Shown here in pieces: positions 3,620 to 51,466 of a stretch of DNA of 64,000 nucleotides. The notes beneath the pieces were generated by a model that saw nothing but the letters and a program-made list of their open reading frames with translations, did not search any database and had not been told where the DNA came from. A program made the translations under genes and the position numbers. Each line of letters opens with the position of its first letter. The first letter of the stretch is position 1. The DNA lies in assembly GCA_027003075.1 (NCBI GenBank), contig JALWYV010000020.1, positions 902 through 64,901 on the forward strand, in the 5' to 3' direction. This DNA comes from a candidate division WOR-3 bacterium (GTDB lineage Bacteria; Hydrothermota; Hydrothermia; LBFQ01).

Positions 3620-5413
3620 ATGCTGTGGATGTTCCTTGCAAAGGACACGTTGTATTTAAAGGACAAAAAGCCACTTGTCCTCAAGCCCGTAGAGACCACG
3701 GTTGAGGAAGAAAACTTCAGACATAGGTTCAGCATCAACGAGTTCGTTTATCCTACGCAGGTAAGCAGGGGACACTTCGGAGGAACGGCATACTTCTACC
3801 AGATGATAGGGGGTCTCCTCCCCTCTGCGGGTTTCTCCTTCAGCGTCAGGGGACTGCCACCCACAAGCAACAGGATGTACATCAACGGCATACCCCTGCT
3901 CAACATGATGTTGAGCAGCCTCGCACCCCTGCCCATAAACGAGAATCTCGTATCCTCTGCCCGTGTTTACCGTGGAGATGCCCCCATAGAGTACGACGGC
4001 TTCTTAGGTGGGGTGATAGACATGAACGTTGAGCCTGTGTACAACAAAGCACAGGTAGGTGTCCCCACGACTTACGTCTTTTTCAAAGGACTCTTTGGCC
4101 AGTACAACAACCCCGCCTACGTAAAGGTGGGTGATGAGCCGAGGTGGAGGACCGAGGACTACTCCGCAGCGTTCATAAGGAACTTCCTCAAGGGCAGGAT
4201 CAGACTCAACGTCCTCTACGCCCACTCGTGGATGGACTTCAGGAGTAGTTTTCAGGGTATGTTCGGAGATAAGGTCAGCTCCTTTACGAACTCGTCCGAA
4301 ATGGCGGGGGCCTCCGTCGTGCTGTGGAGATCCCTCAAACTTTACTACGTTCAGGGAAACGCTCTGAACGATCTAAACAACACTTATGGCTCCGTATTGA
4401 CCAGTACCTTTCAAACTTACCGGAACACGTTGGGCATTATCGGAACTTTCAGATACGGCGGTTTTGAGATAACTTACGACAGCCTGTATAACACCTCCCG
4501 CCTGATTAACTTCTACAGTAGATTTGTGGGTTTTTCCGCCTTCTTGAACCTTGATCGCAGGACAGACAGGATGCTCCTTTATATCGGCGGTAGGCTAACC
4601 CTCGCCCTGTCAGGATCCGGACCGGGTAAGTTCTCGCACGAATTAAAAAAACTCCTGCCCACTTTCAGACTGAAGTTCAAGTACTTTACAGGCGAAAACG
4701 AGGCCTACAGGGTCACACTCGGAACGGCCTATCAGTACACAACGCCGTTCATCCCCATGGGAAACGTAAACATCTTCCCGTCCTCCTACTTTAAAGACTA
4801 TCCGTACGGTGGGGTCTTCACTCTCGGCAGGGAGACTCTCCACAGGTTCGCCATAACCGAGGTGGAGATTTACGTCGGTGCCTTCCAGCCTTACATCTTC
4901 TACAACTGGGGAACGGACGTAGGTTCATCCGCAGAGGACTTCCTAAAGCGTTCGGTAAATGCGACCGTACTGTCCTATGGCTTTGATCTTACGATTACGG
5001 ACAGGTCAAAGGACAACTTCAGGGTATCTGCTACGGTAGGAAGGAGCAGGTTTATAAGGGGTGTGGAGGGGGCATCTCCGTGGGAGAGGAGGTACGCCCT
5101 GTCTTTAACGACACTGTACCTTTCAATCCTCTTCGCCGACGGCATCCCGACCTACGGGTGGTACTACACCTGCAGAGCCTCAGGGAAGTTGCTGTGCAGT
5201 GATTACGTCCTATCCTACACCTTCAACAGGAGCAGCCCCACGCTTATGGTGGCCAGTGGGAAGGAGTGGAGGTACAGGGGTTTTAAGGTCAGGGCCGGTG
5301 TGGGTAACTTCCTATTCTTCTTCAACCGCCTCATATCCACGACGAAAGTTGACCCAACGGCGGTATATCTCATTTACCCCGTGGCTTACCTCTACGTCGT
5401 AAAGGAGTGGTAG
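3620..5413 (+). CDS. Outer-membrane protein with TonB-dependent-receptor plug-like N-terminal region
   Basis: VRGLPP...INGIPL...ARVYRG...YDGFLGGVIDM resembles the TBDR plug; aromatic-rich, ends in W; no clear signal peptide at the listed start. Confidence 0.45.
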   Translation: MLWMFLAKDTLYLKDKKPLVLKPVETTVEEENFRHRFSINEFVYPTQVSRGHFGGTAYFYQMIGGLLPSAGFSFSVRGLPPTSNRMYINGIPLLNMMLSSLAPLPINENLVSSARVYRGDAPIEYDGFLGGVIDMNVEPVYNKAQVGVPTTYVFFKGLFGQYNNPAYVKVGDEPRWRTEDYSAAFIRNFLKGRIRLNVLYAHSWMDFRSSFQGMFGDKVSSFTNSSEMAGASVVLWRSLKLYYVQGNALNDLNNTYGSVLTSTFQTYRNTLGIIGTFRYGGFEITYDSLYNTSRLINFYSRFVGFSAFLNLDRRTDRMLLYIGGRLTLALSGSGPGKFSHELKKLLPTFRLKFKYFTGENEAYRVTLGTAYQYTTPFIPMGNVNIFPSSYFKDYPYGGVFTLGRETLHRFAITEVEIYVGAFQPYIFYNWGTDVGSSAEDFLKRSVNATVLSYGFDLTITDRSKDNFRVSATVGRSRFIRGVEGASPWERRYALSLTTLYLSILFADGIPTYGWYYTCRASGKLLCSDYVLSYTFNRSSPTLMVASGKEWRYRGFKVRAGVGNFLFFFNRLISTTKVDPTAVYLIYPVAYLYVVKEW

Positions 5414-6002: not shown

Positions 6003-6710
6003 TTACCTCCTTCCTGCGAAGAGCCTTATCCAGAACATGCCTATACCTCCGGCAACGGATGCGTTCAGGGACTGTACCCTGCCGAACATGGGGATCTTAA
6101 CGAGATAGTTTACGCTCTTTCTTACCACATCCGATAGCCCTTTACCCTCACTACCCACGACCAGAGCCACGGGAGTGGGGAGTTTCGTGGTCGTTATATC
6201 CTTACCGGCCATGTCCAGGCCTACGGCCACACCACCCCTGCGTTTGTACTCCGTTATGAACTTTGCGGCGTTGTATATGGATATCGGTATATGGAAGATA
6301 GCCCCGGCAGAAGTTTTTACGACGGCCGGAGTTATAGGGGCGGTCCTGCGCGGCGGGATTATGACCCCCGCAAAGCCGAAGGCTTCGGCGCTCCTTATCA
6401 GGGCACCGAGGTTCCGCACATCCTGTATACGGTCAACCACGAGGACGGGCTTACCCGTCTTCAGGGAAACGTTTATTATGGGTTTTCTGTCGTAGGTTCT
6501 GAATTCCCCTATGTCGGCCGCCACACCCTGATGGTCCCTAACACTTGTAAGCCTGTTCAAATCCTTTGAGTTAACAAGTTCAACCTTATGACCAGCCATC
6601 AGCTCAAGGAGGTCGTCGTCAAGACGCACTCCCTTCTGCACGTATATAACCTTCGGTTTTCCTCCGGCCCTGAGGTACTCGTAAACGGGCCTCCTTCCGT
6701 ATATGATCAT
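6003..6710 (-). CDS. rlmB: SpoU/TrmH-family RNA 2'-O-methyltransferase (RlmB-like)
   Basis: N-terminal substrate-binding domain plus SPOUT motifs (LVVGSEGKGLS, IPMFGRVQSLNASVAGGI). Confidence 0.75.
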   Translation of the reverse strand: MIIYGRRPVYEYLRAGGKPKVIYVQKGVRLDDDLLELMAGHKVELVNSKDLNRLTSVRDHQGVAADIGEFRTYDRKPIINVSLKTGKPVLVVDRIQDVRNLGALIRSAEAFGFAGVIIPPRRTAPITPAVVKTSAGAIFHIPISIYNAAKFITEYKRRGGVAVGLDMAGKDITTTKLPTPVALVVGSEGKGLSDVVRKSVNYLVKIPMFGRVQSLNASVAGGIGMFWIRLFAGRR

Positions 6711-16179: not shown

Positions 16180-18510
16180 CTACCTTACCACCACCTTCCG
16201 GGTCTTACCCTTCGCCGAAACGAAGTAAACGCCTCTGTTAAGGTGTACCTGACCACCGTCCGAAAGCTCGGAAACGAGCCTGCCGGAGAGGTCGTAGACC
16301 CTTAGGTTAGCCTTTGCCTTCAGGACATTTCCGGCAAGGGAAAAGCCGTGCAGCTCCGCAGCTATACGCTCCCGTACTTCGGTTGTGACGGGCAACTGCA
16401 CCTTCCACATACCACGGCCGTGGGTGGCGACTATCAGATACGTATGTGTAGGCTCTATCTCAAGGTCGTAGATAGCCGTTGAGGGAACACCGTTTATCTT
16501 CGTATACGTACTCTGATCCATGGAGTAATACAGGCCGTTGTACGTCCCTACGTAGATCGTGTGGGGAGTCGTGGTGAAGTCCACCTCAAGGGCGAGGGCA
16601 GGGGTGTTGGGTAGGTCACCGCTTATATCCGTCCACGTTGCGCCGGCATCGCTGGAGTAAACTACCTTCGCCCCGTAACTCTGCTTTATCGTGGCGTATA
16701 CCTCGGCGGCGTTATCGGGGTTTATGACGATGTCAAAGATGTCCTCCCACGTACTTACGTCGGGCAGGGTCCTGTCTATCCAGGTGCTACCACCGTCAAA
16801 GGAGACCTTGAAGTCCGCAGAACTGGATCCCACGTAAAGGGTGTCCATAGTGGGAGATACGGCCATAGACATGAGGTATCCGGAGGATGAGGAGACGAGA
16901 GAGCCGGATATGGCGGACCAGTTAAGGCCTCCGTCCGTACTCTTCCATAGCCTGTAAGTCCCGGCGAAGACCGTCTGAGTGTTCCCGGTGGGATCGGCCT
17001 CAAGGGGTCCACACGTCCAGCAGGCCCTATCTCCGGACCAGGGGGTCCCTATGTAATTGACGTACTGGAAAGCTGTACCGTCCCATTCGTGCAACTTCAG
17101 GCTGCTCATCTGGACGTAGGTCGTCAGTATACTATCGGGGGCGAAGGGGAACCATAGGACAGGACCACCATCGCCGCCGCGGATGTTCTCCCAGTCGTCT
17201 CCCCACGGAGCGTACCAACCAGCCGTACCGTTGTCCTGAGTACCTCCGGCTACGAGAGAGGAGTCGTCAGGATGAACGTCAAGGGTGTAGAACTGGGTTA
17301 TGCCGAGGCCCCCGTTGAGGTTCTCCCATGAATCTCCGTAATCGTAACTACGCCATAGACCACCGTCGCAGGCGACGTAGAGGGCACCGTCCGCTCCCCA
17401 CGCGAAGTGCTGAATATCAGGATGTACCTTACCGCCGGTTCCACGGTCTGTAACGTCCGTCCACGTGTTTCCACCGTCAAACGTTCTGACTATACCGTGA
17501 TGGTTGGAGTCGTAAGGAAACACCCCTCCGGCGAAAACGGTGTCGGGATTGGTAGGATGTACTATAATGGCGTGGTCGTAACTACCCTGAGAGTAAAGGT
17601 AATCGGGTGTGTTGGTGAGCTGTATCCATGTGGCACCTCCGTCCGTTGTCTTATACAGACCTTCCAGCCCACCTACGGTATTCGCAAAACTGGCGTATAC
17701 GACGTTGGGATCGGAGGGAGATACGGCCAGCTCAACCCTCGTTATGTTGCTTGTGGGTAGGGAGGTTATGACGTTCCACGTGCTGCCTCCATCCGTACTC
17801 TCATAGACTCCTTCGCCGTACACCCCTATGAACATGTGGTCGTAGTCGTCGGACCTCACGGCTATGCTGTTTACGTCGTTGGTGGTAAAGACCCAGCTCC
17901 AGGTGGCTCCTCCGTCGGTGCTTCGGGCCAGGCCGTCGTTACTGGCTACGAATATGACGTTCGGGTCGTTCGGTCTTATCCATATCTGGTCTATGTAGTC
18001 TCCTACCTCACTACGGGTGGCTATCTTGGTCCACGTTGCCCCGGCGTCAGTACTCCTGTAAAGACCATCACCGGTAAAACAGCTCCACCCACAGTAATGC
18101 AGCTCTCCCGTCCCGTAGTAGATGGTGTTGGGATCCGTGGGATCAAAAGCGAGTGCCCCACTCGCTATATTGGGAAGGCCATCTGTGAGTGGCGTCCACG
18201 TGCTCCCTCCATCCGTCGTCTTCCAGACACCCCCGCTGGCGGCTGCTATGTATATGGTATTTGGATCTGTAGGATGGGGGAGAATGTAGGAAATGCGCCC
18301 GCTAACCGTACCGTCGGACCACGGTTCGTCGTACATAGGACGTGGCCCTATGAACGTGGCCGATAGCGTAAAAACAGAAGGTACCCCATTGAAAGTTGCA
18401 CCTTTGGGAACGACCTCCACCATCCGACTCGCCTGAGCGTCCAGGCTCTCTGCGGGGACGATCTGAATGTCCCCATCGGTATAACCGAGAATTAAACATG
18501 TTAAAATCAT
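16180..18510 (-). CDS. BNR/Asp-box repeat beta-propeller protein with T9SS C-terminal sorting domain
   Basis: At least 8 SxDxGxTW motifs (TDGGSTW, TDGGATW, FDGGNTW, YDYGDSW...); C-terminus ...GVYFVSAKGKTRKVVVR. Confidence 0.75.
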   Translation of the reverse strand: MILTCLILGYTDGDIQIVPAESLDAQASRMVEVVPKGATFNGVPSVFTLSATFIGPRPMYDEPWSDGTVSGRISYILPHPTDPNTIYIAAASGGVWKTTDGGSTWTPLTDGLPNIASGALAFDPTDPNTIYYGTGELHYCGWSCFTGDGLYRSTDAGATWTKIATRSEVGDYIDQIWIRPNDPNVIFVASNDGLARSTDGGATWSWVFTTNDVNSIAVRSDDYDHMFIGVYGEGVYESTDGGSTWNVITSLPTSNITRVELAVSPSDPNVVYASFANTVGGLEGLYKTTDGGATWIQLTNTPDYLYSQGSYDHAIIVHPTNPDTVFAGGVFPYDSNHHGIVRTFDGGNTWTDVTDRGTGGKVHPDIQHFAWGADGALYVACDGGLWRSYDYGDSWENLNGGLGITQFYTLDVHPDDSSLVAGGTQDNGTAGWYAPWGDDWENIRGGDGGPVLWFPFAPDSILTTYVQMSSLKLHEWDGTAFQYVNYIGTPWSGDRACWTCGPLEADPTGNTQTVFAGTYRLWKSTDGGLNWSAISGSLVSSSSGYLMSMAVSPTMDTLYVGSSSADFKVSFDGGSTWIDRTLPDVSTWEDIFDIVINPDNAAEVYATIKQSYGAKVVYSSDAGATWTDISGDLPNTPALALEVDFTTTPHTIYVGTYNGLYYSMDQSTYTKINGVPSTAIYDLEIEPTHTYLIVATHGRGMWKVQLPVTTEVRERIAAELHGFSLAGNVLKAKANLRVYDLSGRLVSELSDGGQVHLNRGVYFVSAKGKTRKVVVR

Positions 18511-18598: not shown

Positions 18599-19945
18599 TT
18601 AAAACATCACTTTGAACACCTTCCTCCCGCTCTTTACGAAGTACACACCCGGTTTCAGACTCATCTTCCCGTACTCCCCCTCGTATATCAGCTTCCCGCT
18701 CACATCGTACACCTTCACATATCCGGAGGGCGTACCCTCACTTATAACCTCGCGGGTTTCCCTGACCTTCACCAGGGATATGGGCGCCTTACTGAAGAAG
18801 AGGTCAAGGTCCCCCTCCCTGCCGTCCGCCCATACGGCATAAACGTAATTGCTATCGGCGTATATGGTGTGGTAATCGCCCATGAATCCGACCGGTGAGG
18901 TGAAGGTCGTGTCCGTTATCCTTATCTCCGGGTTCCACGTCTGGCCGAAGTCGGGGGAGTAGCGGTACTTCACGGACCATAGGCTGAAGGTGTCCGTAGG
19001 CCACGAGGGGGTGTCGTAGTAGAAGACGTGAAGCCCTCCGTAGGGGTCAAACGTGGCCCATCCCTTACACTGGCCACCCGAAAGGTTCTGGTTCACGACG
19101 AAAGTGGGGGACCAGGTGTTTCCTCCGTCGTAGGAATAGGCGCCGAGAATGTCCCACGTGCCGTTGCGGTCGTCCACCCAGGTCACGAATACGGTATCGT
19201 CCCCGAATACGGCTATGGAGTTTATGGGGGCCCGGTCGCCGTAGCCGGAGTTGTAGGAGACGTAGTCTATCCTGACCGGCGAGGTCCACGATGAGCCGTG
19301 ATCGTAGGAACGCCTGTAGGTTATGTTTCCTGAAGTCCACTCAATGATAGCGAGATGGAGTATTCCACCCGGGGAAACGGCCAGAGAAACGAGGCCAGTG
19401 GTCGTTGGGTCAACGGTGAACCTCTGCCACGTCCTTCCCCTGTCGTAGGACCGGGCGAACCTTATCCCCTCCTCCGATCCTCCGAACTCCTGCCACGCCA
19501 CGTAAACGGTATCCCCCTTAACCACCATCCAGGGCTTATCAACGTCCCCACCTGTAGAGAGGTCGCTTATATTTGAAGTGTCGTGCCAGGTTATTCCTCC
19601 GTCCCTTGAGAGGTAATGCCGTACGACGTAAATTGAGAACTGCACCAGAAGATGTACGTACCCGGAGTCGTCTATTCCCACTACCGGATCTGTATGCCAG
19701 GTTATCCCCACGCTGTTGTCCACGAAGTTGTAGTTCGTCGGGAAGGTCGTTCCTCCGTCGTAAGATGCTGCAAACGGAAGGGCGGCGTACGATCCCCTCT
19801 CGTTCGTATTGCAGGCTACGAATATGCTGTCTCCGGAGGACGAGACGGCGAAGGAGGATTCCCCCTGATTGAGGGTAGGACCCGGATCCGCCGATATTTT
19901 CACGTTGGGCATGAAGGGGTAGTCTGTAAGGAGTAGCAGGATCAT
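18599..19945 (-). CDS. BNR/Asp-box repeat (sialidase-like propeller) protein with T9SS CTD
   Basis: DGGITW, DRGRTW, DHGSSW, DGGNTW, FGQTW repeats; ends GVYFVKSGRKVFKVMF. Confidence 0.75.
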   Translation of the reverse strand: MILLLLTDYPFMPNVKISADPGPTLNQGESSFAVSSSGDSIFVACNTNERGSYAALPFAASYDGGTTFPTNYNFVDNSVGITWHTDPVVGIDDSGYVHLLVQFSIYVVRHYLSRDGGITWHDTSNISDLSTGGDVDKPWMVVKGDTVYVAWQEFGGSEEGIRFARSYDRGRTWQRFTVDPTTTGLVSLAVSPGGILHLAIIEWTSGNITYRRSYDHGSSWTSPVRIDYVSYNSGYGDRAPINSIAVFGDDTVFVTWVDDRNGTWDILGAYSYDGGNTWSPTFVVNQNLSGGQCKGWATFDPYGGLHVFYYDTPSWPTDTFSLWSVKYRYSPDFGQTWNPEIRITDTTFTSPVGFMGDYHTIYADSNYVYAVWADGREGDLDLFFSKAPISLVKVRETREVISEGTPSGYVKVYDVSGKLIYEGEYGKMSLKPGVYFVKSGRKVFKVMF

Positions 19946-41286: not shown

Positions 41287-41862
41287 ATGAAGGGGTTGTT
41301 GAGATTGATTTTAGTTCTGATGATGGCGATCACGTTAGCGACGTGTAAATCCGGTTCATCCACGGGACCGGACGTGGGTGAGGACAACCCCACGGATACT
41401 CTACCCGGTAGCGATACCACATCGTGGGTGCTTCTGGCCGAAGGTACGTTTACAGCCTATGAGAGGGACATAACGGGAGATACGGTGTGCGACGAGTTCG
41501 TACTATCGTGGCCCAGAGACGCCTACGACGATCCCGAAGGCTCAAGGTTCCCTTTGAACGAGCCGGTATATCCGGGAGACTACCTCAGGGTGTTCGGCAG
41601 GTACGAGGCCGGAAACGATGTGGGGACCTTCGCCTTTGCGGGAGATACGTCCAACCCCGGATTTCAGGAACTGGCCCTCGCCGTTCTACCCGACACCCTC
41701 AGAAGTCCGGGGGACACGGCCTCATTCGCTCAGCCCTACGGTGGTACGGATACCCTCTCCTTCTACATAGTGGTGGCCATGATAGACAACGGAAACATGA
41801 GGTGCAGGCCCAACTCAACCGATTCCGTAAGGTTCTACTACAGGCTTGAAAAGAGGAGGTGA
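41287..41862 (+). CDS. Hypothetical lipoprotein
   Basis: Signal peptide with ITLATC lipobox. Confidence 0.5.
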   Translation: MKGLLRLILVLMMAITLATCKSGSSTGPDVGEDNPTDTLPGSDTTSWVLLAEGTFTAYERDITGDTVCDEFVLSWPRDAYDDPEGSRFPLNEPVYPGDYLRVFGRYEAGNDVGTFAFAGDTSNPGFQELALAVLPDTLRSPGDTASFAQPYGGTDTLSFYIVVAMIDNGNMRCRPNSTDSVRFYYRLEKRR

Positions 41863-42026
41863 GCATGCGGAAGGTTGGCCGTATGCTCCATTCGGATAAC
41901 TCCCTATCCAAACCGTTCCATAATTGGAATCTCCAGACCCTCCCCTTTGACCACTACGCCCGCATCTGGTCCGTGGGAGACCGCGACTCGGCGAGGGTAT
42001 ATTACAAGATATTGAAATTGAAGATA

Positions 42027-42488
42027 ATGAAAAGGTTATCTCTCTTTGCCGTACTGCTTCTGGTAGGCTGTGGCGGTAAAAAGGCCGAGGAGAAGGCCAA
42101 AAAGGGTGCCGTGAAACCCGTCGCCGAACAACAGGTTCAGATAAAGCCTCCTGCCAACCTATCCCACCCTGCTATGGCCCAGCAGTGGGAGGCCTTCAAG
42201 AAGAGCGAGGCCGTAAATTACGCCCCTCCCGGATTCCAGCTTGAGGGTTTCGGAGAGGACGAGAAGGGTTTCGTAGCCTGGGGAAACGTAAAGGGTAAAA
42301 CACAGGAGGATATCGTAAGTTTCTACACCTCCAAGTTCGGGGAACCCACGAAAAAGGCTCAGAATCCCGTCATAGGGAACGCCGTCACCCTCGTATGGGA
42401 AGGTGAGAAATTCTCGGTGATGGTCCGGCAGAAAGAAGGTGGCGTAAGCGTTCATTACTCCAAGGGCAGAAAAGGAGGCGGGAAATGA
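42027..42488 (+). CDS. Hypothetical lipoprotein (start trimmed to MKRLSLFAVLLLVGCGG)
   Basis: Lipobox; paralogous to the next gene. Confidence 0.55.
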   Translation: MKRLSLFAVLLLVGCGGKKAEEKAKKGAVKPVAEQQVQIKPPANLSHPAMAQQWEAFKKSEAVNYAPPGFQLEGFGEDEKGFVAWGNVKGKTQEDIVSFYTSKFGEPTKKAQNPVIGNAVTLVWEGEKFSVMVRQKEGGVSVHYSKGRKGGGK

Positions 42489-42940
42489 GGCGGGTCTTTC
42501 TGATCCCCGTGTTTCTTCTACTCTCCTGCATGCCCGGGGGATGCCAGCAGAGAATGGCCGAAAGGATGGGAGAGAGGGTTGTTGAAAAAGCCATAGAGAG
42601 TCAAATGAAGGCGGCAGGGGGACGGGAAGTTGATATAGGTTCCGTAAATCTAAAAGGTGAGGCCAGGGAATATGCCCCTCCCGGTTTCAGAGCCAGCTTT
42701 TTGGGCGAGACGGAGGACGGTTTTATGATGGCCGGGGTAGTGAAGGGTAAAACTCAGGAGGATCTGGCCGAATTCTTTATATCTAAACTCGGAAAACCTT
42801 CCGGCCGTTTTGTGATGGGAAACCAGCTCCATCTCGCATGGAATGAAAAGGATACCTACGTGGTGATAAATGGTAAGTCCGGGAGTATAGAACTCTACGT
42901 GGCAAAAGGTAAAAAGGCAAAAGGAAAGATAGGGAGGTGA
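42485..42940 (+). CDS. Hypothetical lipoprotein, tandem paralogue
   Basis: Shares YAPPGF...G..KGKTQED...F...K.G.P with the preceding gene. Confidence 0.55.
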   Translation: MRRVFLIPVFLLLSCMPGGCQQRMAERMGERVVEKAIESQMKAAGGREVDIGSVNLKGEAREYAPPGFRASFLGETEDGFMMAGVVKGKTQEDLAEFFISKLGKPSGRFVMGNQLHLAWNEKDTYVVINGKSGSIELYVAKGKKAKGKIGR

Positions 42941-46156: not shown

Positions 46157-46324
46157 AAGGAGGATATTCTACCGTGGTTTTCGGGGGATGTCCACGGTTT
46201 GTTTCTTGCGATTTTTTAAAGGGTGTCCATAGCGGTGGAAAGTGTCGGGTACAGGGTGCAACGGATCGTGGGAAGAAGGGTAAGAGAGATTTTTGACAAC
46301 AGATTCACCCTTAAAATTTAACTT

Positions 46325-46921
46325 ATGCTGCTTTCCATATTACTTTCGGTTGAGCCTGCACCGGACTCCCTCTTTGGGAGATGGGAGGTATGGGAGTACT
46401 TTCAGGAGGCTGACACCACACCCCTGCCGGAGGAACCTCAGGGGTACGACCTCAAACTCGGAAACCACATAGCCCTTCAGGACACGTGGTACCACGTTTA
46501 CAGGAAGGGTTCCAAAAAGTACCATGGAGGCACACCTTACATGCTCATCAGAGGCAAGCTCTTCCTTGAGGATATTGACAGTATAGTCCTCTTCGTGAAG
46601 TGCAACTTCCCGTTTACAGTTGCAGGTTCGGGTTTAACGAGAACTGGCAAAGGAAAATTACGACCTATATACAATTTCCCCGAAGGAACAGACGGATGGG
46701 AAAAGGTGGTGCTAAGACCCGCGGATATTGTTGAGGTTGATACGACGGACACGAGTTATGTGATGAGGAGGTTTATTGAAGATTACCTCGGAGATAAACG
46801 CATGTATCCCAACGGTATGATACGGGTTGTAATTTCGGCCTACGAGAAGGTAGGTGTATTCTACGTCCGGTTTGAGGTATCGCCTCTTTACGTGTATCTG
46901 AAGAAGGAGGAGGAGAGATGA
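46325..46921 (+). CDS. Hypothetical protein, cassette copy A
   Basis: C-terminus VFYVRFEVSPLYVYL resembles copy B YEYEMELSPIYLVR. Confidence 0.45.
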   Translation: MLLSILLSVEPAPDSLFGRWEVWEYFQEADTTPLPEEPQGYDLKLGNHIALQDTWYHVYRKGSKKYHGGTPYMLIRGKLFLEDIDSIVLFVKCNFPFTVAGSGLTRTGKGKLRPIYNFPEGTDGWEKVVLRPADIVEVDTTDTSYVMRRFIEDYLGDKRMYPNGMIRVVISAYEKVGVFYVRFEVSPLYVYLKKEEER

Positions 46922-47049
46922 TCACCCTGATGCTCGTATGGTTTGAGAGCAGGGTAACTAATTACGTCCACTCGGACAGGTACACTGAACCTGCGGGTGC
47001 GTATTTCGTTAAAACGAGGGGTAAGGTGTTTAAGGTAGTGGTCATATAA
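46918..47049 (+). pseudogene. Detached T9SS CTD tail (43 aa, ATG overlaps preceding stop as ATGA)
   Basis: ...YVHSDRYTEPAGAYFVKTRGKVFKVVVI* matches the final strands of the CTDs found on other cargo proteins in this window. Confidence 0.5.
46991..47049 (+). repeat. Direct repeat copy 1 (about 60 nt, 27-nt identical core GGGGTAAGGTGTTTAAGGTAGTGGTCA)
   Basis: About 85% identical to 47991-48049, offset exactly 1000 nt. Confidence 0.8.
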
Positions 47050-47092
47050 AAGTACTTGAAAAATCTTCGCTTCACCCTCAAAATATGACCTT

Positions 47093-47737
47093 ATGTTGTT
47101 TTTCGTTTATCTCTTCGCCGATCTTGACGAGAGCAAACAGATGGACAGCATACTCAAGGCTGTCGGTGCAGTGAAGTACGAGTACGGAGGCTGGGAGATA
47201 GCCAACTTTGACACCCTGCCCGTTAGCGATAGCATACCCATACCCGATGGGGAATACAGGATCGTGAATGACTACAAGGCCCTTCATCTAAGGGGGGTGT
47301 GGGAGTACAGGGATAGAAAATTCAAGACGAGGCTCCTTAAACCTGGAATGGCATCCTATCTCAGAGGCTATCCTCTTGACCTCCTTGACTGGGGGAGGTA
47401 TCTCGTCTTCTATATCAGGGGGAAGGGAAGGTACGAAATAGGAGGAGAGATCGCATATCAACAGTACTGTAGAGGATTCATCATTAGGAATCTAACGCTT
47501 GACACATTGTGGAGAGAAATACGGATAGATCTTGATTCTTTAAAGAAGGGATTTGACGTCAATAATCCTCCCGGGTGGATATGGAACGATGGAGGCTCCC
47601 CGGCCTGCTGGGCATGGGGGAAGGACGGTAAGAAAAGTGGCTTTGTTCCCATGAGATGGGCTATTATACCCCTTGCCGACACCTTTGGAACCTACGAATA
47701 CGAGATGGAACTAAGCCCGATATATCTCGTGAGGTAG
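47093..47737 (+). CDS. Hypothetical protein, cassette copy B
   Basis: Paralogous C-terminal motif to copy A. Confidence 0.45.
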   Translation: MLFFVYLFADLDESKQMDSILKAVGAVKYEYGGWEIANFDTLPVSDSIPIPDGEYRIVNDYKALHLRGVWEYRDRKFKTRLLKPGMASYLRGYPLDLLDWGRYLVFYIRGKGRYEIGGEIAYQQYCRGFIIRNLTLDTLWREIRIDLDSLKKGFDVNNPPGWIWNDGGSPACWAWGKDGKKSGFVPMRWAIIPLADTFGTYEYEMELSPIYLVR

Positions 47738-47890
47738 GAGGTGAAACGTGCTGCCGTTAGCGGTCTCCTTCTTCGCCACACGTATAAACAGCGATATACC
47801 CAACTACTGCTACCAGAGTTACCTTGAAGGGGACCTCGCACTTAACGACGGCTATTTAGTGGCAGCAGTACTAAACAGAAACTGGCCTAA

Positions 47891-48049
47891 TAAGTTCTGG
47901 ACGATAAGCATCTTCGTTGATACCACCAGAGGCACAAATTGGCTTCCAGCGGAAGGCTCGTTTTCAGGGGCGAGGGCAGGGTCTCCTTGCCTGCAGGTGT
48001 GTATTTCGTTAAGGTCGGGGGTAAGGTGTTTAAGGTAGTGGTCAGATAA
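47891..48049 (+). pseudogene. Detached T9SS CTD tail fragment without start codon
   Basis: Open frame ...SGRLVFRGEGRVSLPAGVYFVKVGGKVFKVVVR*. Confidence 0.45.
47991..48049 (+). repeat. Direct repeat copy 2
   Basis: See copy 1. Confidence 0.8.
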
Positions 48050-48185: not shown

Positions 48186-49298
48186 CTATAGAACCTCCTC
48201 CAGAGGCGTGTACTCCAGACCGAAGGCCTCGGCCACCGCCTTATACGTCACCTTGCCGAAGACGAGGTTTACACCCCTCGCAAGGGCCTTATCCCGCTTC
48301 ACGGCCTCCTTCCATCCGAGATCGGCCAGCTTTATGACGTAGGAGAGGGTGGAGTTGGTAAGGGCGAAGGTGCTGGTACGGGGTACGGCTCCGGGCATGT
48401 TGGCCACACAGTAGTGTACCACACCCTCGGCCACGAATACGGGGTTGTCGTGGGTTGTAGGCTTTGAGAACTCCGATATCCCTCCCTGATCTATGGAGAC
48501 GTCCACCAGGACCGCCCCATCTTTCATATCGGCGAGTATATCCTTTGTCAGGAGTTTGGGGGCACGGGCTCCGGGTTTCAGGACAGCCCCTATGACGAGG
48601 TCGGCGTTCTTAACGGCCTCCCGCAGCGTGTACTCTGTTGAAAACAGGGTCTTCACGTTGGCGGGTATTATCTCCTCCGCGAGGCGCATCTTCTGGACGT
48701 TTATATCCATGAGAGTAACGTCCGCCCCCATACCGGCGGCCACCATCGTGGCACTCATACCCACAGATCCCGCCCCTATGACCACGACCTTGGCTGGAGG
48801 CACACCGGGGACACCTCCGAGAAGGACCCCGAGTCCTCCGAAGGGCTTCTCAAGGTACTTGGCACCCTCCTGAGGGGCCATCTTACCGGCTATTTCGCTC
48901 ATCGGGGCCAGGAGGGGGAGAAAGCCGTCGTCCGTCTCCACCGTCTCGTAGGCGATTCCCACGATCTTCCTCTCCATCAATGCCCTCGTAAGGTTCTCGT
49001 CGGCTGCGAGGTGCAGGTACGTGAAGAGGACCTGTCCCTCACGAAGTAGATTGTACTCCTCCGGCTGCGGCTCCTTCACCTTGACGATCATCTCTGCCCT
49101 CTCGTACACCTCCTCAATGCTATCTACCAGTTCTGCCCCGGCTCCGGCGTAATCCTCATCGCTCAATCCGGCACCGAGTCCGGCAGTTTTCTGAACTATT
49201 ACTTTATGGCCGTGGCGGGTCAGCTCCCTCACACCTGCGGGAGTCATCGCGACTCTGTACTCTTCCTTCTTGATCTCCTTGGGGACTCCAATTACCAT
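48186..49298 (-). CDS. ald: Alanine dehydrogenase
   Basis: Full-length AlaDH; [13 protein letters not shown]-binding motif. Confidence 0.9.
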
Positions 49299-49336: not shown

Positions 49337-51466
49337 CTACCTCACGATAATTTTTAATGTTCTGCCCTTCACCCTCACGAAGTACACACCTTTGGGTAAA
49401 TCTATCGGAACCTTGACCCAGCCGACGACCTCACCCAGGTCCCTGCTCATAACCGTACGGCCGGACGGGGAGTACACCCTGAGGATCACCCTCTGGGGGT
49501 AGGGGACCATAACCGTGACCTTGTTGTCGGAGTACGTCAGGTTCACATCGCCGTTATAGGCCGCTTCGTCGTAGGACGTGATTGAGCAGTTTACGGTGGT
49601 ATCCCTCTGGTAAAGGATGGCGTCGGCTATCACCACGTCTCCGTCGGGAGCATCGTCGTACATGACGACGTGAAGGGTATCGGCACAAACGGTATCCAAG
49701 AGTATCCAACCGGTATCGGAGGTCGCACTGTACTGACTGACGTAAACGTCCCTTACGCCGTCGTCGGCGTATATCCTGTAGTGTACGGAGGTGCTGCGGT
49801 TGGAACCCTTGCGGACCCACGCGTACACGACGTACCCGGAGAAGCATCCGAGGTCGGAGAACCATACGGAAGAGTCGGGCGCACCTCCCACGTAGGCGTA
49901 TCTGTAGTCGCCGTTGTATCCGCTGTAGGAGCTGAGGGTCCAGGTTCCGAAACCACTCCATCCGGCGTCTCCGTCGTCCACGACCTTGTCGCCGCATACC
50001 GTGCTACCTCTCCAGGACCACCTTATGGCGTCAAAGGCTATCCTGTCCCCGCTTATTGTTGAGGAGTCAAGGAGGATCACGTAACCGGAGGAGCCGGCGT
50101 TGAAGTTGTAGGTACCGAGGCTCACCCACTCGGAGGAGTAGTTACCCTGATCTATCCACACCGTATCCGTGCCACCGGCGTGGTTTACGATGTATGGGAC
50201 GTAGGCGTCGTACTGGGTGCCGGCCGGGATGTAGGCGAAGACCTCGTAGGGTCCGGTGTAGGGGAGGTTTGGGGTCCACTTCGCCCAGTTTGCAACACCG
50301 CTCCACGACCCCGTATGCCACATGTGGCCGTAGGCACCGTAGCCGTTGGCGGAGTCGTAGTACCAGTACTGACTTGGGCCGTACTTTCGGAACCCCTGAG
50401 AGAGCTCGTCCACTATCGTATCTACAGACGGGAGGCCGTTCACCAGAACCGTATAGTACGCCCAGTCCCAGTAATCTCCCGGGTCCGTGTGGGTCGCTCC
50501 GGGAACTTCAACGTGGCCGATAATATGGGCCCTGTCTTTAGGAAATCCGAAAGTGTTGGCAGCCATGCGGCTTATGTATGCGGACTTACGGTAGAGCGTA
50601 TCCGTGTACCATCCGTTCTCATCCACGTACCCTTCGTGTTCTATACCTATGGACTGGGTGTTGTAGGTCCAGTTTCCGGCGTGCCAGCCGATATCCTTGT
50701 GGCACACCATCTGAGTGGCTTCCCCCACGGGGGCCCCATCCGATGGGTTGTACTCGGAGTTGACAACGTAGTGGGCGGAGACGTTGGCTGAAGAGTTCTG
50801 GAACCACGAAATCGCCCCGTAGTACGTTCCCTGAGTGGTGTGAATTATTATGTAGTTTATGGGGTAGTCCGACGGCCTGTTGGCGCTGGTGTAGTTAGAG
50901 GAGTGGGCAGGCACCCACCTCTCAACTAACGGAAATTCCGGTCCCGGAGGACACGCAAGGAGACCCTCCCCGGAACCGTTCTCCACCTCCATCAGGTATT
51001 CGGGTATACGGATGTCCGGATGTGGGCGGGTTCCGAGTACGGGGAACTTCACGCCGGATTTAAGGAGCATAAGTATATCTCTGGCGAATACCTTTTCTGC
51101 ACCGGGAGGAGCGTACATCTCAAGGGCGCACACGAGATCTCCACCGCAGGCGTCAAGGTAATGTCTGAGCAGCAGGGCGCCGGCTTTTATGCCCGCCCAA
51201 TTGTCGTTAACTATACGATCTCGGGTAATACCGGAAACCTTTTCGGCATCTTCGATCTTAAATATACCCATCACACCGTACTGGGGAACAGCTTCGGCGT
51301 TGGGGTACGGTTTCGCTCTGTGAAATCTCGTCAAACGGTATGCTATAACCCTCAGGAGATCCCCATCCACACCTATCTCCACCTCAGCCCTATAGAAGTA
51401 CGATTCAAGGGTCTTCAACCTCGCCACATCTTCCGGCGAGGGACCGGACAGGAAAAATACCAGCAT
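49337..51466 (-). CDS. N-acetylmuramoyl-L-alanine amidase (Amidase_2/PGRP) domain protein with T9SS CTD
   Basis: IIIHTTQGTY...HAGNWTYNTQSIGIEHEG...HIIGHVEV zinc amidase core; ends GVYFVRVKGRTLKIIVR. Confidence 0.75.
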   Translation of the reverse strand: MLVFFLSGPSPEDVARLKTLESYFYRAEVEIGVDGDLLRVIAYRLTRFHRAKPYPNAEAVPQYGVMGIFKIEDAEKVSGITRDRIVNDNWAGIKAGALLLRHYLDACGGDLVCALEMYAPPGAEKVFARDILMLLKSGVKFPVLGTRPHPDIRIPEYLMEVENGSGEGLLACPPGPEFPLVERWVPAHSSNYTSANRPSDYPINYIIIHTTQGTYYGAISWFQNSSANVSAHYVVNSEYNPSDGAPVGEATQMVCHKDIGWHAGNWTYNTQSIGIEHEGYVDENGWYTDTLYRKSAYISRMAANTFGFPKDRAHIIGHVEVPGATHTDPGDYWDWAYYTVLVNGLPSVDTIVDELSQGFRKYGPSQYWYYDSANGYGAYGHMWHTGSWSGVANWAKWTPNLPYTGPYEVFAYIPAGTQYDAYVPYIVNHAGGTDTVWIDQGNYSSEWVSLGTYNFNAGSSGYVILLDSSTISGDRIAFDAIRWSWRGSTVCGDKVVDDGDAGWSGFGTWTLSSYSGYNGDYRYAYVGGAPDSSVWFSDLGCFSGYVVYAWVRKGSNRSTSVHYRIYADDGVRDVYVSQYSATSDTGWILLDTVCADTLHVVMYDDAPDGDVVIADAILYQRDTTVNCSITSYDEAAYNGDVNLTYSDNKVTVMVPYPQRVILRVYSPSGRTVMSRDLGEVVGWVKVPIDLPKGVYFVRVKGRTLKIIVR

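Follow-up and report, generated by a model that had tools for sequence, protein, structure and literature searches.

The window, the whole 64,000-nucleotide stretch of DNA analysed here, comes from a thermophilic bacterium of candidate division WOR-3 and carries two intact genes of about 200 codons (S-A and S-B) and two pseudogene relics of larger genes (Big-A and Big-B), with the following features:

46304 to 46322, forward strand: conserved box TTCACCCTTAAAATTTAAC, directly 5' of the start codon of S-A, and TTGACA at 46295-46300
46325 to 46921, forward strand: S-A gene (ORF A), 198 aa, intact and conserved, possibly a beta-sandwich
46918 to 47049, forward strand: relic A (tail A), the two ends of a Big-A gene, comprising its first ~25 codons and its last ~18-19 codons plus stop
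46990 to 47049 (copy 1) and 47990 to 48049 (copy 2), forward strand: 60-nt direct repeat, 87% identical, the conserved 3' terminus of Big genes
47056 to 47089, forward strand: putative promoter-like TTGAAA-17-CAAAAT from a consensus scan, with conserved box TTCACCCTCAAAATATGAC, 5' of S-B
47093 to 47737, forward strand: S-B gene (ORF B), 214 aa, intact and conserved, predicted beta-jelly-roll like that of carbohydrate-binding modules
47748 to 47946, forward strand: relic B, 5' piece, GTG start with GGAGGTGA 5 nt upstream, then the first 66 codons of a Big-B gene
47948 to 48049, forward strand: relic B, 3' piece, the final 33 codons and stop codon of a gene of Big-B type, end of a T9SS-like C-terminal domain

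Both ORFs from which the sequence-only reading had started are thus present, and the ATG of tail A does overlap the stop codon of ORF A as ATGA. That reading had taken each ORF and the tail behind it for pieces of a frameshift-disrupted cargo gene; the homologues of the S proteins indicate, instead, that S-A and S-B are each a complete gene. Specifically, S-A has six homologues (195-200 aa, 61-93% identity, all ending at the same place) and S-B has 22 (205-217 aa when full-length), and these 28 proteins, whose full-length members span 195-217 aa, stop where the window ORFs stop, conserve the C-terminus (...ELSPIYLVR or ...FEVSPLYVYLKK), and in no case carry a fused sorting domain. Purifying selection is directly visible in dN/dS ratios of 0.14-0.30 for S-A and 0.10-0.26 for S-B. 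Moreover, a B-family profile search of 1.84 billion proteins recovered no longer S-CTD fusions; its sole long match, a protein of 886 aa (E=6e-4), covers a 38-residue stretch only. For this undescribed family, which is restricted to WOR-3, the search returned just 7 clusters among the 1.84 billion representatives.

The AF2 model of S-B (pLDDT 81.8) is predicted to resemble carbohydrate-binding modules with a beta-jelly-roll, the Foldseek matches in the PDB being CBM11/CBM4/CBM30, FlaA1, and CIA30, with E values down to 9e-6 and TM scores of 0.36-0.46. The S-A model is weak (pLDDT 64.5) and its Foldseek matches are non-significant (best E=8e-3), some of them being jelly-roll CBMs. Both models are mostly beta-strand, and the jelly-roll is supported for S-B alone, the S-A model being too weak. 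The description of the two ORFs as paralogues finds no backing in their comparison: BLASTP returns no significant similarity (E=2.4), shuffle tests give z of about 0-0.8, and hhalign of the two family alignments gives a probability of 1.4%, the match being a 15-residue C-terminal motif only. Profile comparisons of the S-A and S-B families with a third subfamily yield 1.3-1.7%, and the A-type proteins are not retrieved by the B-family profile from the 1.84 billion proteins searched. What the two proteins share is limited to short collinear motifs (G.W...DT.P and FE[VL][SG]P[IL]Y), and paralogy, which does hold for the Big genes, is not demonstrable for the S pair.

In the relatives, designated here by L numbers, the place of the tail is taken by a separate Big gene of 472-498 aa that follows the S gene, has its own start codon, contains Asp-box (BNR) motifs, and ends in a C-terminal domain like that of T9SS cargo. 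L005 carries S-B, S-B, and a 498-aa gene whose start lies 10 nt past S-B; L008 carries S-B and then a 494-aa gene; L007 carries S-A and then a 472-aa gene; and L017 carries an S-A 83% identical to that of the window, followed by an intact 472-aa gene at the same AGATGA overlap, so that the ATGA overlap of the window is the native S-A/Big-A gene junction. This comparison with orthologous loci bears out the pseudogene half of the earlier proposal and refutes the fusion of ORF and tail: the frameshift as cause gives way to deletions of ~1.2-1.3 kb in separate genes, and a split gene or programmed frameshift, also considered, is rejected on the same grounds, namely the lack of any fused S-CTD homologue and the separate gene at that position. 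Likewise, the tails do not represent an unrecognised gene architecture, being the ends of separate Big genes of which relatives carry intact versions. Identity between Big-A (L007) and Big-B (L005/L008) is 26-29% over their full length (E 1e-35 to 1e-42), by which measure the two downstream genes are paralogous. Big is probably a beta-propeller because of its Asp-box/BNR motifs, three of which are visible per protein in Asp-box-like form; its propeller scores are below the cutoffs (BNR_2, 20.5 bits against 31.4; BNR, 21.7 against 27), and phmmer against the PDB finds only the sialidase 2ber_A (E=0.014).

In nucleotide alignments, the two pieces of relic A correspond to the beginning and the end of the Big-A genes that are intact in L017 and L007. 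The 5' piece (46918-~46991) and the 3' piece (46990-47049) retain 75 + 57 nt of a 1419-nt gene, and they are joined in frame at a 2-nt CC microhomology, from which we infer an internal deletion of ~1287 nt. Residues 1-25 of Big-A are matched by tblastn; MITLMLVWFESRVTNYVHSDRYTEP of the relic corresponds to MIALMLVWFESRVTAYSHTARHDEP at the N-terminus of the L017 protein and AGAYFVKTRGKVFKVVVI to AGVYFVKVKDRVFKVVVR at its C-terminus, and the first 41 nt agree at 39 positions, the break lying at GAACC|TGC. Five other assemblies, which come from different samples (L001, L002, L003, L004, and L009), have exactly this junction. In L003, L004, and L009, a further 1-nt deletion within tail A shifts the frame, so that the tail ends in ...KGKCLR and a stop. 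Since the junction recurs in five assemblies and the frame is lost in three of them, relic A is neither an assembly artefact nor a conserved ORF.

Relic B has the same composition in a larger format. Its 5' piece is 75-78% identical in amino acids to residues 1-65 of the intact Big-B of L005 and L008 and 98-100% identical in nucleotides to the syntenic L003/L004, whose gene runs on beyond the point (47946) where the alignment with the window ends. Its 3' piece shows 88% nucleotide identity to L005 6051-6152 and 91% amino acid identity to residues 466-498 of the L005 Big protein. Relative to L005, window 47057-47914 aligns to 3965-4822 and window 47948-48049 to 6051-6152, and the junction at 47946/47948 leaves 199 + 102 nt of a ~1497-nt gene, with ~1.2 kb lost. 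Because 302 nt remain in total, the 3' piece is out of frame with the 5' piece. The claim that the tail follows ORF B in a different frame is right as to the end of that frame at 48049 and wrong as to the simple succession: a 96-aa ORF (47748-48038), with its own Shine-Dalgarno-like GGAGGTGA, begins 10 nt past ORF B and intervenes, and the frame of tail B joins it at the deletion junction. The junction is known from this assembly alone; no independent contig spans 47946/47948 (L001 stops 43 nt short), the junction 24-mer had no match in a JGI metagenome scan, and an exact look-up of the 96-aa ORF found no other record.

Relic B could also have arisen through a larger rearrangement, in which a deletion or recombination event fused the 5' end of the local Big-B gene with the 3' end of another Big copy lying beside ald and took out all the DNA in between, a reading that is unlikely though worth weighing. 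The synteny with L003/L004 stops exactly at the junction, and the DNA that lies downstream in those relatives (three tRNA-Pro genes, a PorV-like gene, and a response regulator) is missing from the window. Moreover, the right flank of the window, with ald at 48186-49298, is not syntenic with any relative examined, and the neighbours of ald differ in L027 and L028. As to the ancestral right flank, the ald protein of the window has no match in an exact look-up, and its homologues (96% and 93% protein identity) sit among different neighbours and are therefore uninformative. Against the larger rearrangement, the relatives have themselves been rearranged at this point, the tRNA-Pro cluster truncating the Big-B gene of L003, and therefore do not show the ancestral state. 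The 3' piece is, furthermore, of Big-B type and 88-92% identical to L005/L013/L015, as expected of a local gene, which favours an internal deletion of the local Big-B.

The direct repeat of ~60 nt that had been reported between the tails is confirmed as 60 nt with 87% identity and a 27-nt identical core, GGGGTAAGGTGTTTAAGGTAGTGGTCA. It encodes PAG(V/A)YFVK...VFKVVV(R/I) with the stop, and the corresponding end shows 70-93% nucleotide identity among 10 Big genes and relics from five genomes, so that the repeat is simply the 3' end that Big genes conserve throughout the family; the 3' ends within a genome show only a hint of extra similarity. The postulated recent tandem duplication with gene conversion is not supported in that form, given that the Big types are 26-29% identical, that similarity between S-A and S-B is undetectable, and that the repeat is family-wide; the two cassettes are old and have diverged widely. 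The spacing of the repeat copies is indeed 1000 nt from start to start. As a property of the locus, the period does not survive, because lengths differ in the relatives: in the closest ones, ORF A is 3 nt shorter, tail A is 1 nt shorter, and tail B is absent altogether. The exact 1000-nt spacing is a coincidence.

The S genes seem to be preceded by promoters of their own. The TTCACCCTTAAAATTTAAC box, which is also found 5' of S genes in L005, would mark the promoter of an S gene that is leaderless or nearly so, and its positions 46304-46322 pair with 47071-47089 at 84% in the repeat family D3. The TTCACCCTCAAAATATGAC region is conserved in L005 upstream of both its S-B genes. These assignments are putative; the terminator and promoter scan returned consensus-level matches only. 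The possibility that the tail serves as a promoter element for the next S gene was considered and rejected: the S-B pair of L005 has the same 43-nt spacer and no tail.

Erosion of Big genes is not confined to this locus. Relics that retain the C-terminus only are directly observed in L007 (861-950), L012 (~4772-4953), and L018 (838-903), relics that retain the N-terminus only in L016 (999-1094) and L005 (3148-3258), and Big-B is frameshifted in L015 and both frameshifted and truncated in L003, at the tRNA-Pro cluster. As far as alignment with the intact genes can tell, the tails of the window are very probably the first and last codons that survive from two distinct downstream genes after deletion of their interiors (~1.2-1.3 kb), and the locus is in all likelihood a case of ordinary gene decay within a recombining array of lineage-specific genes in a thermophilic WOR-3 bacterium. 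The proposed course of events would be as follows. The region consists of two neighbouring cassettes of two genes each, from a family that only thermophilic bacteria of candidate division WOR-3 have; an intact cassette comprises an S gene (~200 aa, with its own promoter-like box and no sorting domain) and then a Big gene of 472-498 aa, the two apparently being tightly coupled through an ATGA overlap or a 10-nt gap with a Shine-Dalgarno sequence. Both Big genes would have lost their interiors through illegitimate deletion, at microhomology or no homology. Relic A, with ~25 N-terminal and ~18 C-terminal codons in frame, would be old and is shared with related strains; relic B, in which 66 codons from the N-terminal end and 33 from the C-terminal end remain in different frames, is known in this lineage only. 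On the 5' side, a longer deletion would hurt the S gene, whose stop codon overlaps the start of Big or lies next to it, and on the 3' side, it would hurt the next S promoter, which begins 6 nt past the Big stop; erosion may have halted at both borders because going further would cause such damage. The parent genes are the source of the ATGA overlap, of the 60-nt repeat, and of the CTD-like peptide ends, and we infer that the tails themselves are non-functional remnants.

A different significance would attach to the relics if the S/Big cassettes formed a recombination-driven variable surface system in thermophilic WOR-3 bacteria, an idea that is speculative and rather improbable. The cores of S genes are swapped between strains (flanks 93-99% identical, cores 59-83% for S-A and 75-85% for S-B), and the Big 5' and 3' ends and the S-gene ends are nearly identical between strains. 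If such a system existed, the relics would be by-products or silent donors of cassette exchange, not plain decay, and the conserved termini would act as recombination anchors. Two further observations would fit such a system: the Big 3' ends within a genome are slightly homogenised, and relics are scattered through the arrays.

Sequencing or assembly error, by which each ORF and its tail would really be one gene or intact Big genes would have been collapsed by the assembler, is very improbable. The Big and S genes are multi-copy, and assemblers struggle with the family, many of whose loci sit at contig ends; the relic B junction, moreover, has no independent confirmation. These concerns are outweighed for relic A by the recurrence of its junction across samples and for the ORFs by the absence of CTD fusions in any S-A or S-B homologue, and in relic B, where codon 66 is joined to codon ~465, the sides share no k-mer-length homology, so that a de Bruijn collapse is unlikely.

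Least credible of all is that the tails are functional small genes or a regulatory or recombination DNA element. One candidate would be a 43-aa, cargo-less T9SS substrate from relic A, composed of a short hydrophobic N-terminus and the last CTD motifs. The relic is in frame and has kept both its native start codon and its translational coupling; according to the review PMC10202324, the 22 residues at the end of the HBP35 CTD are enough for T9SS-dependent GFP secretion in P. gingivalis; and the Big 3' ends are 70-93% identical in nucleotides, compared with 53-68% for the similar CTD end of a neighbouring amidase. Translation of short peptides is possible because both relic ORFs retain start codons with good Shine-Dalgarno-like sequences. 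However, the frameshift inside tail A in three close relatives, the out-of-frame relic B, the arbitrary pieces kept by relics elsewhere (N-terminus only, C-terminus only, frameshifted), and the directly successive S genes of L005, which show that the tail is not needed for the next promoter, all speak against a function.

The decay of the two Big genes changes little by itself, other than removing one candidate new architecture. It does carry a warning for annotation: a short ORF with a T9SS-like end beside an unrelated gene may be the eroded end of a neighbouring cargo gene. The family is multi-copy, mosaic between strains, and repeatedly deprived of its large partner, and in it stand-alone S proteins (CBM-like by prediction in the case of S-B) go together with proteins that bear a CTD and have Asp-box motifs. 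This could bear on the surface or glycan biology of an uncultured lineage of thermophiles. A literature search on WOR-3 with T9SS and on CTD pseudogenes found nothing relevant.

[quoted passage not shown] The Big C-terminal domain does resemble the T9SS type A CTD, though below threshold: intact Big proteins score 17.7 and 20.3 bits against TIGR04183 (cutoff 23; the L007 protein has no match) and 15 against PF18962 (cutoff 27), and their end, ...SGRLVFRG.G.VSLPAGVYFVKV...VFKVVVR, aligns to the distal part of these profiles. In the relatives, this region lies at the extreme C-terminus of Big, the host clade falls in the FCB group, and one gene of L003 is PorV-like, a weak match to the PorV family and the sole sign of T9SS machinery. 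On the other side, the organism belongs to WOR-3 and not to Bacteroidota, and the tails keep only 18-19 (A) and 33 (B) residues of a ~70-80-residue domain, giving no match to PF18962 and, for tail B, none other than DUF6383 (E=0.085). Neither the amidase nor any of 20 ORFs scanned in the window matched a T9SS component, and the Big N-termini (MLLLMALFFATRINKD... and MIALMLVWFESRV...) are short hydrophobic stretches without a positively charged n-region.

The S proteins, in turn, invite comparison with the CBM-type sandwiches, since the predicted fold of S-B matches CBM11/CBM4/CBM30, FlaA1 (spirochaete), and CIA30 at Foldseek E values of 9e-6 to 1e-3; they differ from them in that the TM score is only 0.36-0.46 at 9-16% identity, and they are stand-alone proteins with no Pfam or NCBIfam match. 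In Rhs/CdiA-type polymorphic loci, orphan C-terminal fragments hold the toxin tip, which is variable, and immunity genes come after them. The S/Big arrays may be likened to these in their tandem organisation, in the fragments of large secreted genes beside small intact partners, and in conserved segments that could aid recombination, but the fragments here are conserved ends, the small gene lies upstream, and there is no sign of toxin or immunity activity. Lastly, the relics compare with the pseudogenes that internal deletion leaves behind where bacterial genomes evolve by reduction or with a deletion bias. As there, a gene that relatives have intact keeps its two ends and has lost what lay between them, at junctions with microhomology or no homology; close relatives differ in the frame; and relic A, the older of the two, is smaller (132 nt) than the younger relic B (302 nt). 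What sets the locus apart from that class is that two neighbouring paralogous genes were hit and that relics recur in many copies of the cassette family while the partner S genes are kept.

The locus shows plain gene decay within a recombining family of cassettes that is undescribed and restricted to one lineage, and its two short C-terminal tails, A and B, are best read from homology as the two ends of the larger cassette genes, here called Big. The features involved are as follows.

46325-46921: ORF A (S-A), 198 aa
46918-47049: 43-aa ORF (tail A, relic A), whose ATG start overlaps the stop of ORF A (AGATGA)
47093-47737: ORF B (S-B), 214 aa
47748-48038: 96-aa ORF with a GTG start and GGAGGTGA upstream, beginning 10 nt past ORF B
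ending at 48049: reading frame of tail B (relic B), encoding ...GRLVFRGEGRVSLPAGVYFVKVGGKVFKVVVR and a stop
46990-47049 and 47990-48049: direct repeat of 60 nt, 87% identical, with a 27-nt identical run (repeat search)
48186-49298: ald (alanine dehydrogenase), right flank of relic B

The coordinates and sequence features of the sequence-only reading are correct, including the overlapping ATG and the repeat; tail B does lie in a different frame, but that frame follows the 96-aa ORF, which had been overlooked. The proposed paralogy of ORFs A and B is not supported: no similarity between them is detectable by BLASTP (E=2.4), profile-profile comparison (probability 1.4%) or shuffle tests (z about 0). 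The G+C content is 48.5% locally vs 54% over the whole window.

Contigs bearing homologues belong to candidate-division WOR-3 MAGs, although one source MAG (L019, L024, L025) is labelled Thermotogota, and typically carry an S gene followed by a separate Big gene of 472-498 aa, in arrangements such as these.

L005: S-B, S-B, then a 498-aa gene beginning 10 nt past S-B
L008: S-B, a 494-aa gene, S-A
L007: an S gene of a third subfamily, S-A, a 472-aa gene
L017: S-B, S-A (83% identical to the window's), an intact 472-aa gene from the same overlap position

Big proteins contain Asp-box-like motifs, with sub-threshold BNR/BNR_2 and sialidase matches, and their C-terminus (...SGRLVFRGKGRVSLPAGVYFVKVGGRVFRVVVR) resembles the distal portion of the profile for the T9SS type A sorting domain (CTD), scoring 17.7-20.3 bits vs a cutoff of 23; A-linked and B-linked Big proteins share full-length identity of 26-29% (E 1e-35 to 1e-42). 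After the intact Big gene of the paralogous array in GCA_027081455.1 comes a 550-aa protein (L005 6196-7848) rich in GGDD/GNDTY-type repeats and without a Pfam match. Elsewhere in the window, three intact genes end in CTD-like tails, and three ORFs form a separate group for which no Pfam match was found.

16180-18510, minus strand: 776-aa Sortilin-Vps10/BNR protein, CTD-like tail
18599-19945, minus strand: 448-aa BNR_2 protein, CTD-like tail, with a distant resemblance to Big (27% over 240 aa)
49337-51466, minus strand: 709-aa Amidase_2 plus Golvesin_C protein, CTD-like tail
41287-42940, plus strand: three overlapping ORFs in a row (191, 209 and 151 aa) upstream of a PD40 beta-propeller gene

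Relic A encodes MITLMLVWFESRVTNYVHSDRYTEP (5' piece) joined to AGAYFVKTRGKVFKVVVI (3' piece), which align to the N-terminal 25 residues of the L017 Big-A protein (MIALMLVWFESRVTAYSHTARHDEP...) and its C-terminal 18 (...AGVYFVKVKDRVFKVVVR), with 39 of the first 41 bases identical. The homology switches at GAACC/TGCGGG, a two-base CC microhomology, and about 1287 nt (429 codons) are missing, the deletion being in frame. Since the tail ends are homologous to Big ends, the native Big start sites are the ATGA overlap and, in the 96-aa ORF, the GTG that a Shine-Dalgarno sequence precedes. The identical junction occurs in five other assemblies (L001, L002, L003, L004 and L009), and relic A (132 nt) is called the older one, common to four lineages. 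An extra 1-nt deletion in L003, L004 and L009 turns tail A into ...KGKCLR and a stop; therefore, the residual ORF is not conserved.

For relic B, window positions 47057-47914 align to L005 3965-4822 (S-B and the Big 5' end) and 47948-48049 to L005 6051-6152 (the Big 3' end), and the syntenic relatives L003 and L004 align up to 47946, beyond which their gene continues. What is left amounts to 302 nt of a gene of ~1497 nt, a remainder not divisible by three, so that the C-terminal piece falls in another frame. This relic is called younger than relic A; its junction is seen in the window assembly only, L001 ending 43 nt before it, a JGI metagenome scan did not find the junction 24-mer, and an exact look-up found no record of the 96-aa product. 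Rather than from a simple 1.2-kb deletion, relic B may, with lower probability, stem from a larger rearrangement, because the neighbours of ald differ from the window's in the two closest relatives compared. An assembly collapse is unlikely, given that no long identical stretch is common to both sides of the junction. In L003, the orthologous Big-B gene suffered its own, independent destruction, through an extra base near codon 24 and truncation at residue ~184. That truncated gene abuts a tandem of three minus-strand tRNA-Pro(TGG) genes (L003 5201-5488, GCA_027081455.1), beyond which lie a PorV-like gene and a response regulator; the window lacks this rearrangement point. The join in relic B also creates a small perfect hairpin around the junction (CTTCC-AGC-GGAAG, 47943-47955), which may be due to chance.

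Ten Big genes or relics, drawn from five genomes, have final 60-nt stretches with 70-93% mutual identity, except for the decayed, frameshifted L012 relic (50-65%), even between paralogues with protein identity otherwise below 30%. The similar CTD end of the neighbouring amidase gene shares only 53-68% with them; on these grounds, the 60-nt repeat is the conserved 3' terminus of the Big family. Within-genome pairs (0.87 for window A/B and 0.87 for the L007 gene and relic, vs 0.72-0.80 between orthologous types) give a hint, not proof, of gene conversion. The spacing of the repeats is indeed exactly 1000 nt in the window; it is nonetheless coincidental, because it hinges on a deletion specific to this lineage and is not the same in relatives.

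Decay recurs across the family, as surveyed by tblastn over 27 loci.

L007 861-950; L012 ~4772-4953 (frameshifted); L018 838-903: C-terminus-only relics
L016 999-1094; L005 3148-3258; L013: N-terminus-only relics
L015: frameshifted Big gene
L018 (residues 1-73 plus 152-214); L022: damaged S genes

Arrays of several S genes with one Big gene are common (L005, L014, L017, L018), and each WOR-3 MAG holds 2-5 S-family loci. Many family copies (L009, L010, L016, L017, L019-L026) sit no more than a few hundred bases from a contig end, a position to be expected of repeated genes, and the cassettes act as repeats that break assemblies. Big genes would be dispensable and repeatedly lost via illegitimate deletion. 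Deletions into the upstream S gene, whose stop overlaps or abuts the Big start, would probably be selected against, as would those reaching the following S gene's promoter-like box, which begins 6 nt past the Big stop; because of this selection, erosion would halt at both borders and leave a start-plus-end stub. Divergence from L003, L004 and L009 forms a mosaic: housekeeping DNA on the flanks keeps 93-99% identity to the syntenic relatives, the S-A interior (46390-46839) falls to 59-83%, and the S-B interior (47140-47589) falls in L003 to 75-85%, though not in L009. Together with near-saturated synonymous sites in the S-A segment aa 120-172 (pS ~0.8), this suggests exchange of S-gene cores between alleles or paralogues within conserved ends.

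S-A and S-B themselves are complete genes. The 6 S-A homologues measure 195-200 aa (61-93% identity) and the full-length ones among 22 S-B homologues 205-217 aa (47-82%), the latter sharing with S-B the C-terminus ...TFGTYEYEIELSPIYLVR; a C-terminal sorting domain occurs in none of either set. When 1.84 billion representative proteins were searched with a profile, only seven clusters matched, none of them a fusion, and pairwise dN/dS is low (0.14-0.30 for S-A, 0.10-0.26 for S-B). Lengths, lack of fusions and dN/dS thus rule out that either ORF is a truncated cargo gene. In the strain assembly L001 (ERZ27262687), 99.4% identical to the window, a 7-nt deletion by GGGAGAT repeat slippage (window ~46376-46382, L001 63-69) frameshifts the conserved FGRWEVWEY motif, and S-A is therefore inactivated in that population. 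Upstream of S genes, a conserved box, TTCACCCT(Y)AAAAT(W)T(R)AC (window 46304-46322 and 47071-47089; L005 3291-3322 and 3979-4010), ends 2-3 nt before the ATG with no Shine-Dalgarno sequence, which suggests that S mRNAs are leaderless or nearly so; Big genes, unlike S genes, have GGAGGTGA or the ATGA overlap at their start.

Lastly, S-B is predicted to form a beta-jelly-roll (pLDDT 81.8), which, with the Asp-box motifs and CTD-like end of Big, makes it plausible that the cassette acts at the cell surface or in the handling of glycans. The S-A model is poor (pLDDT 64.5), and its non-significant matches include some of the fold class of S-B, whose predicted fold resembles CBM11, CBM4 and CBM30, and also FlaA1 and CIA30 (E to 9e-6, TM 0.36-0.46).
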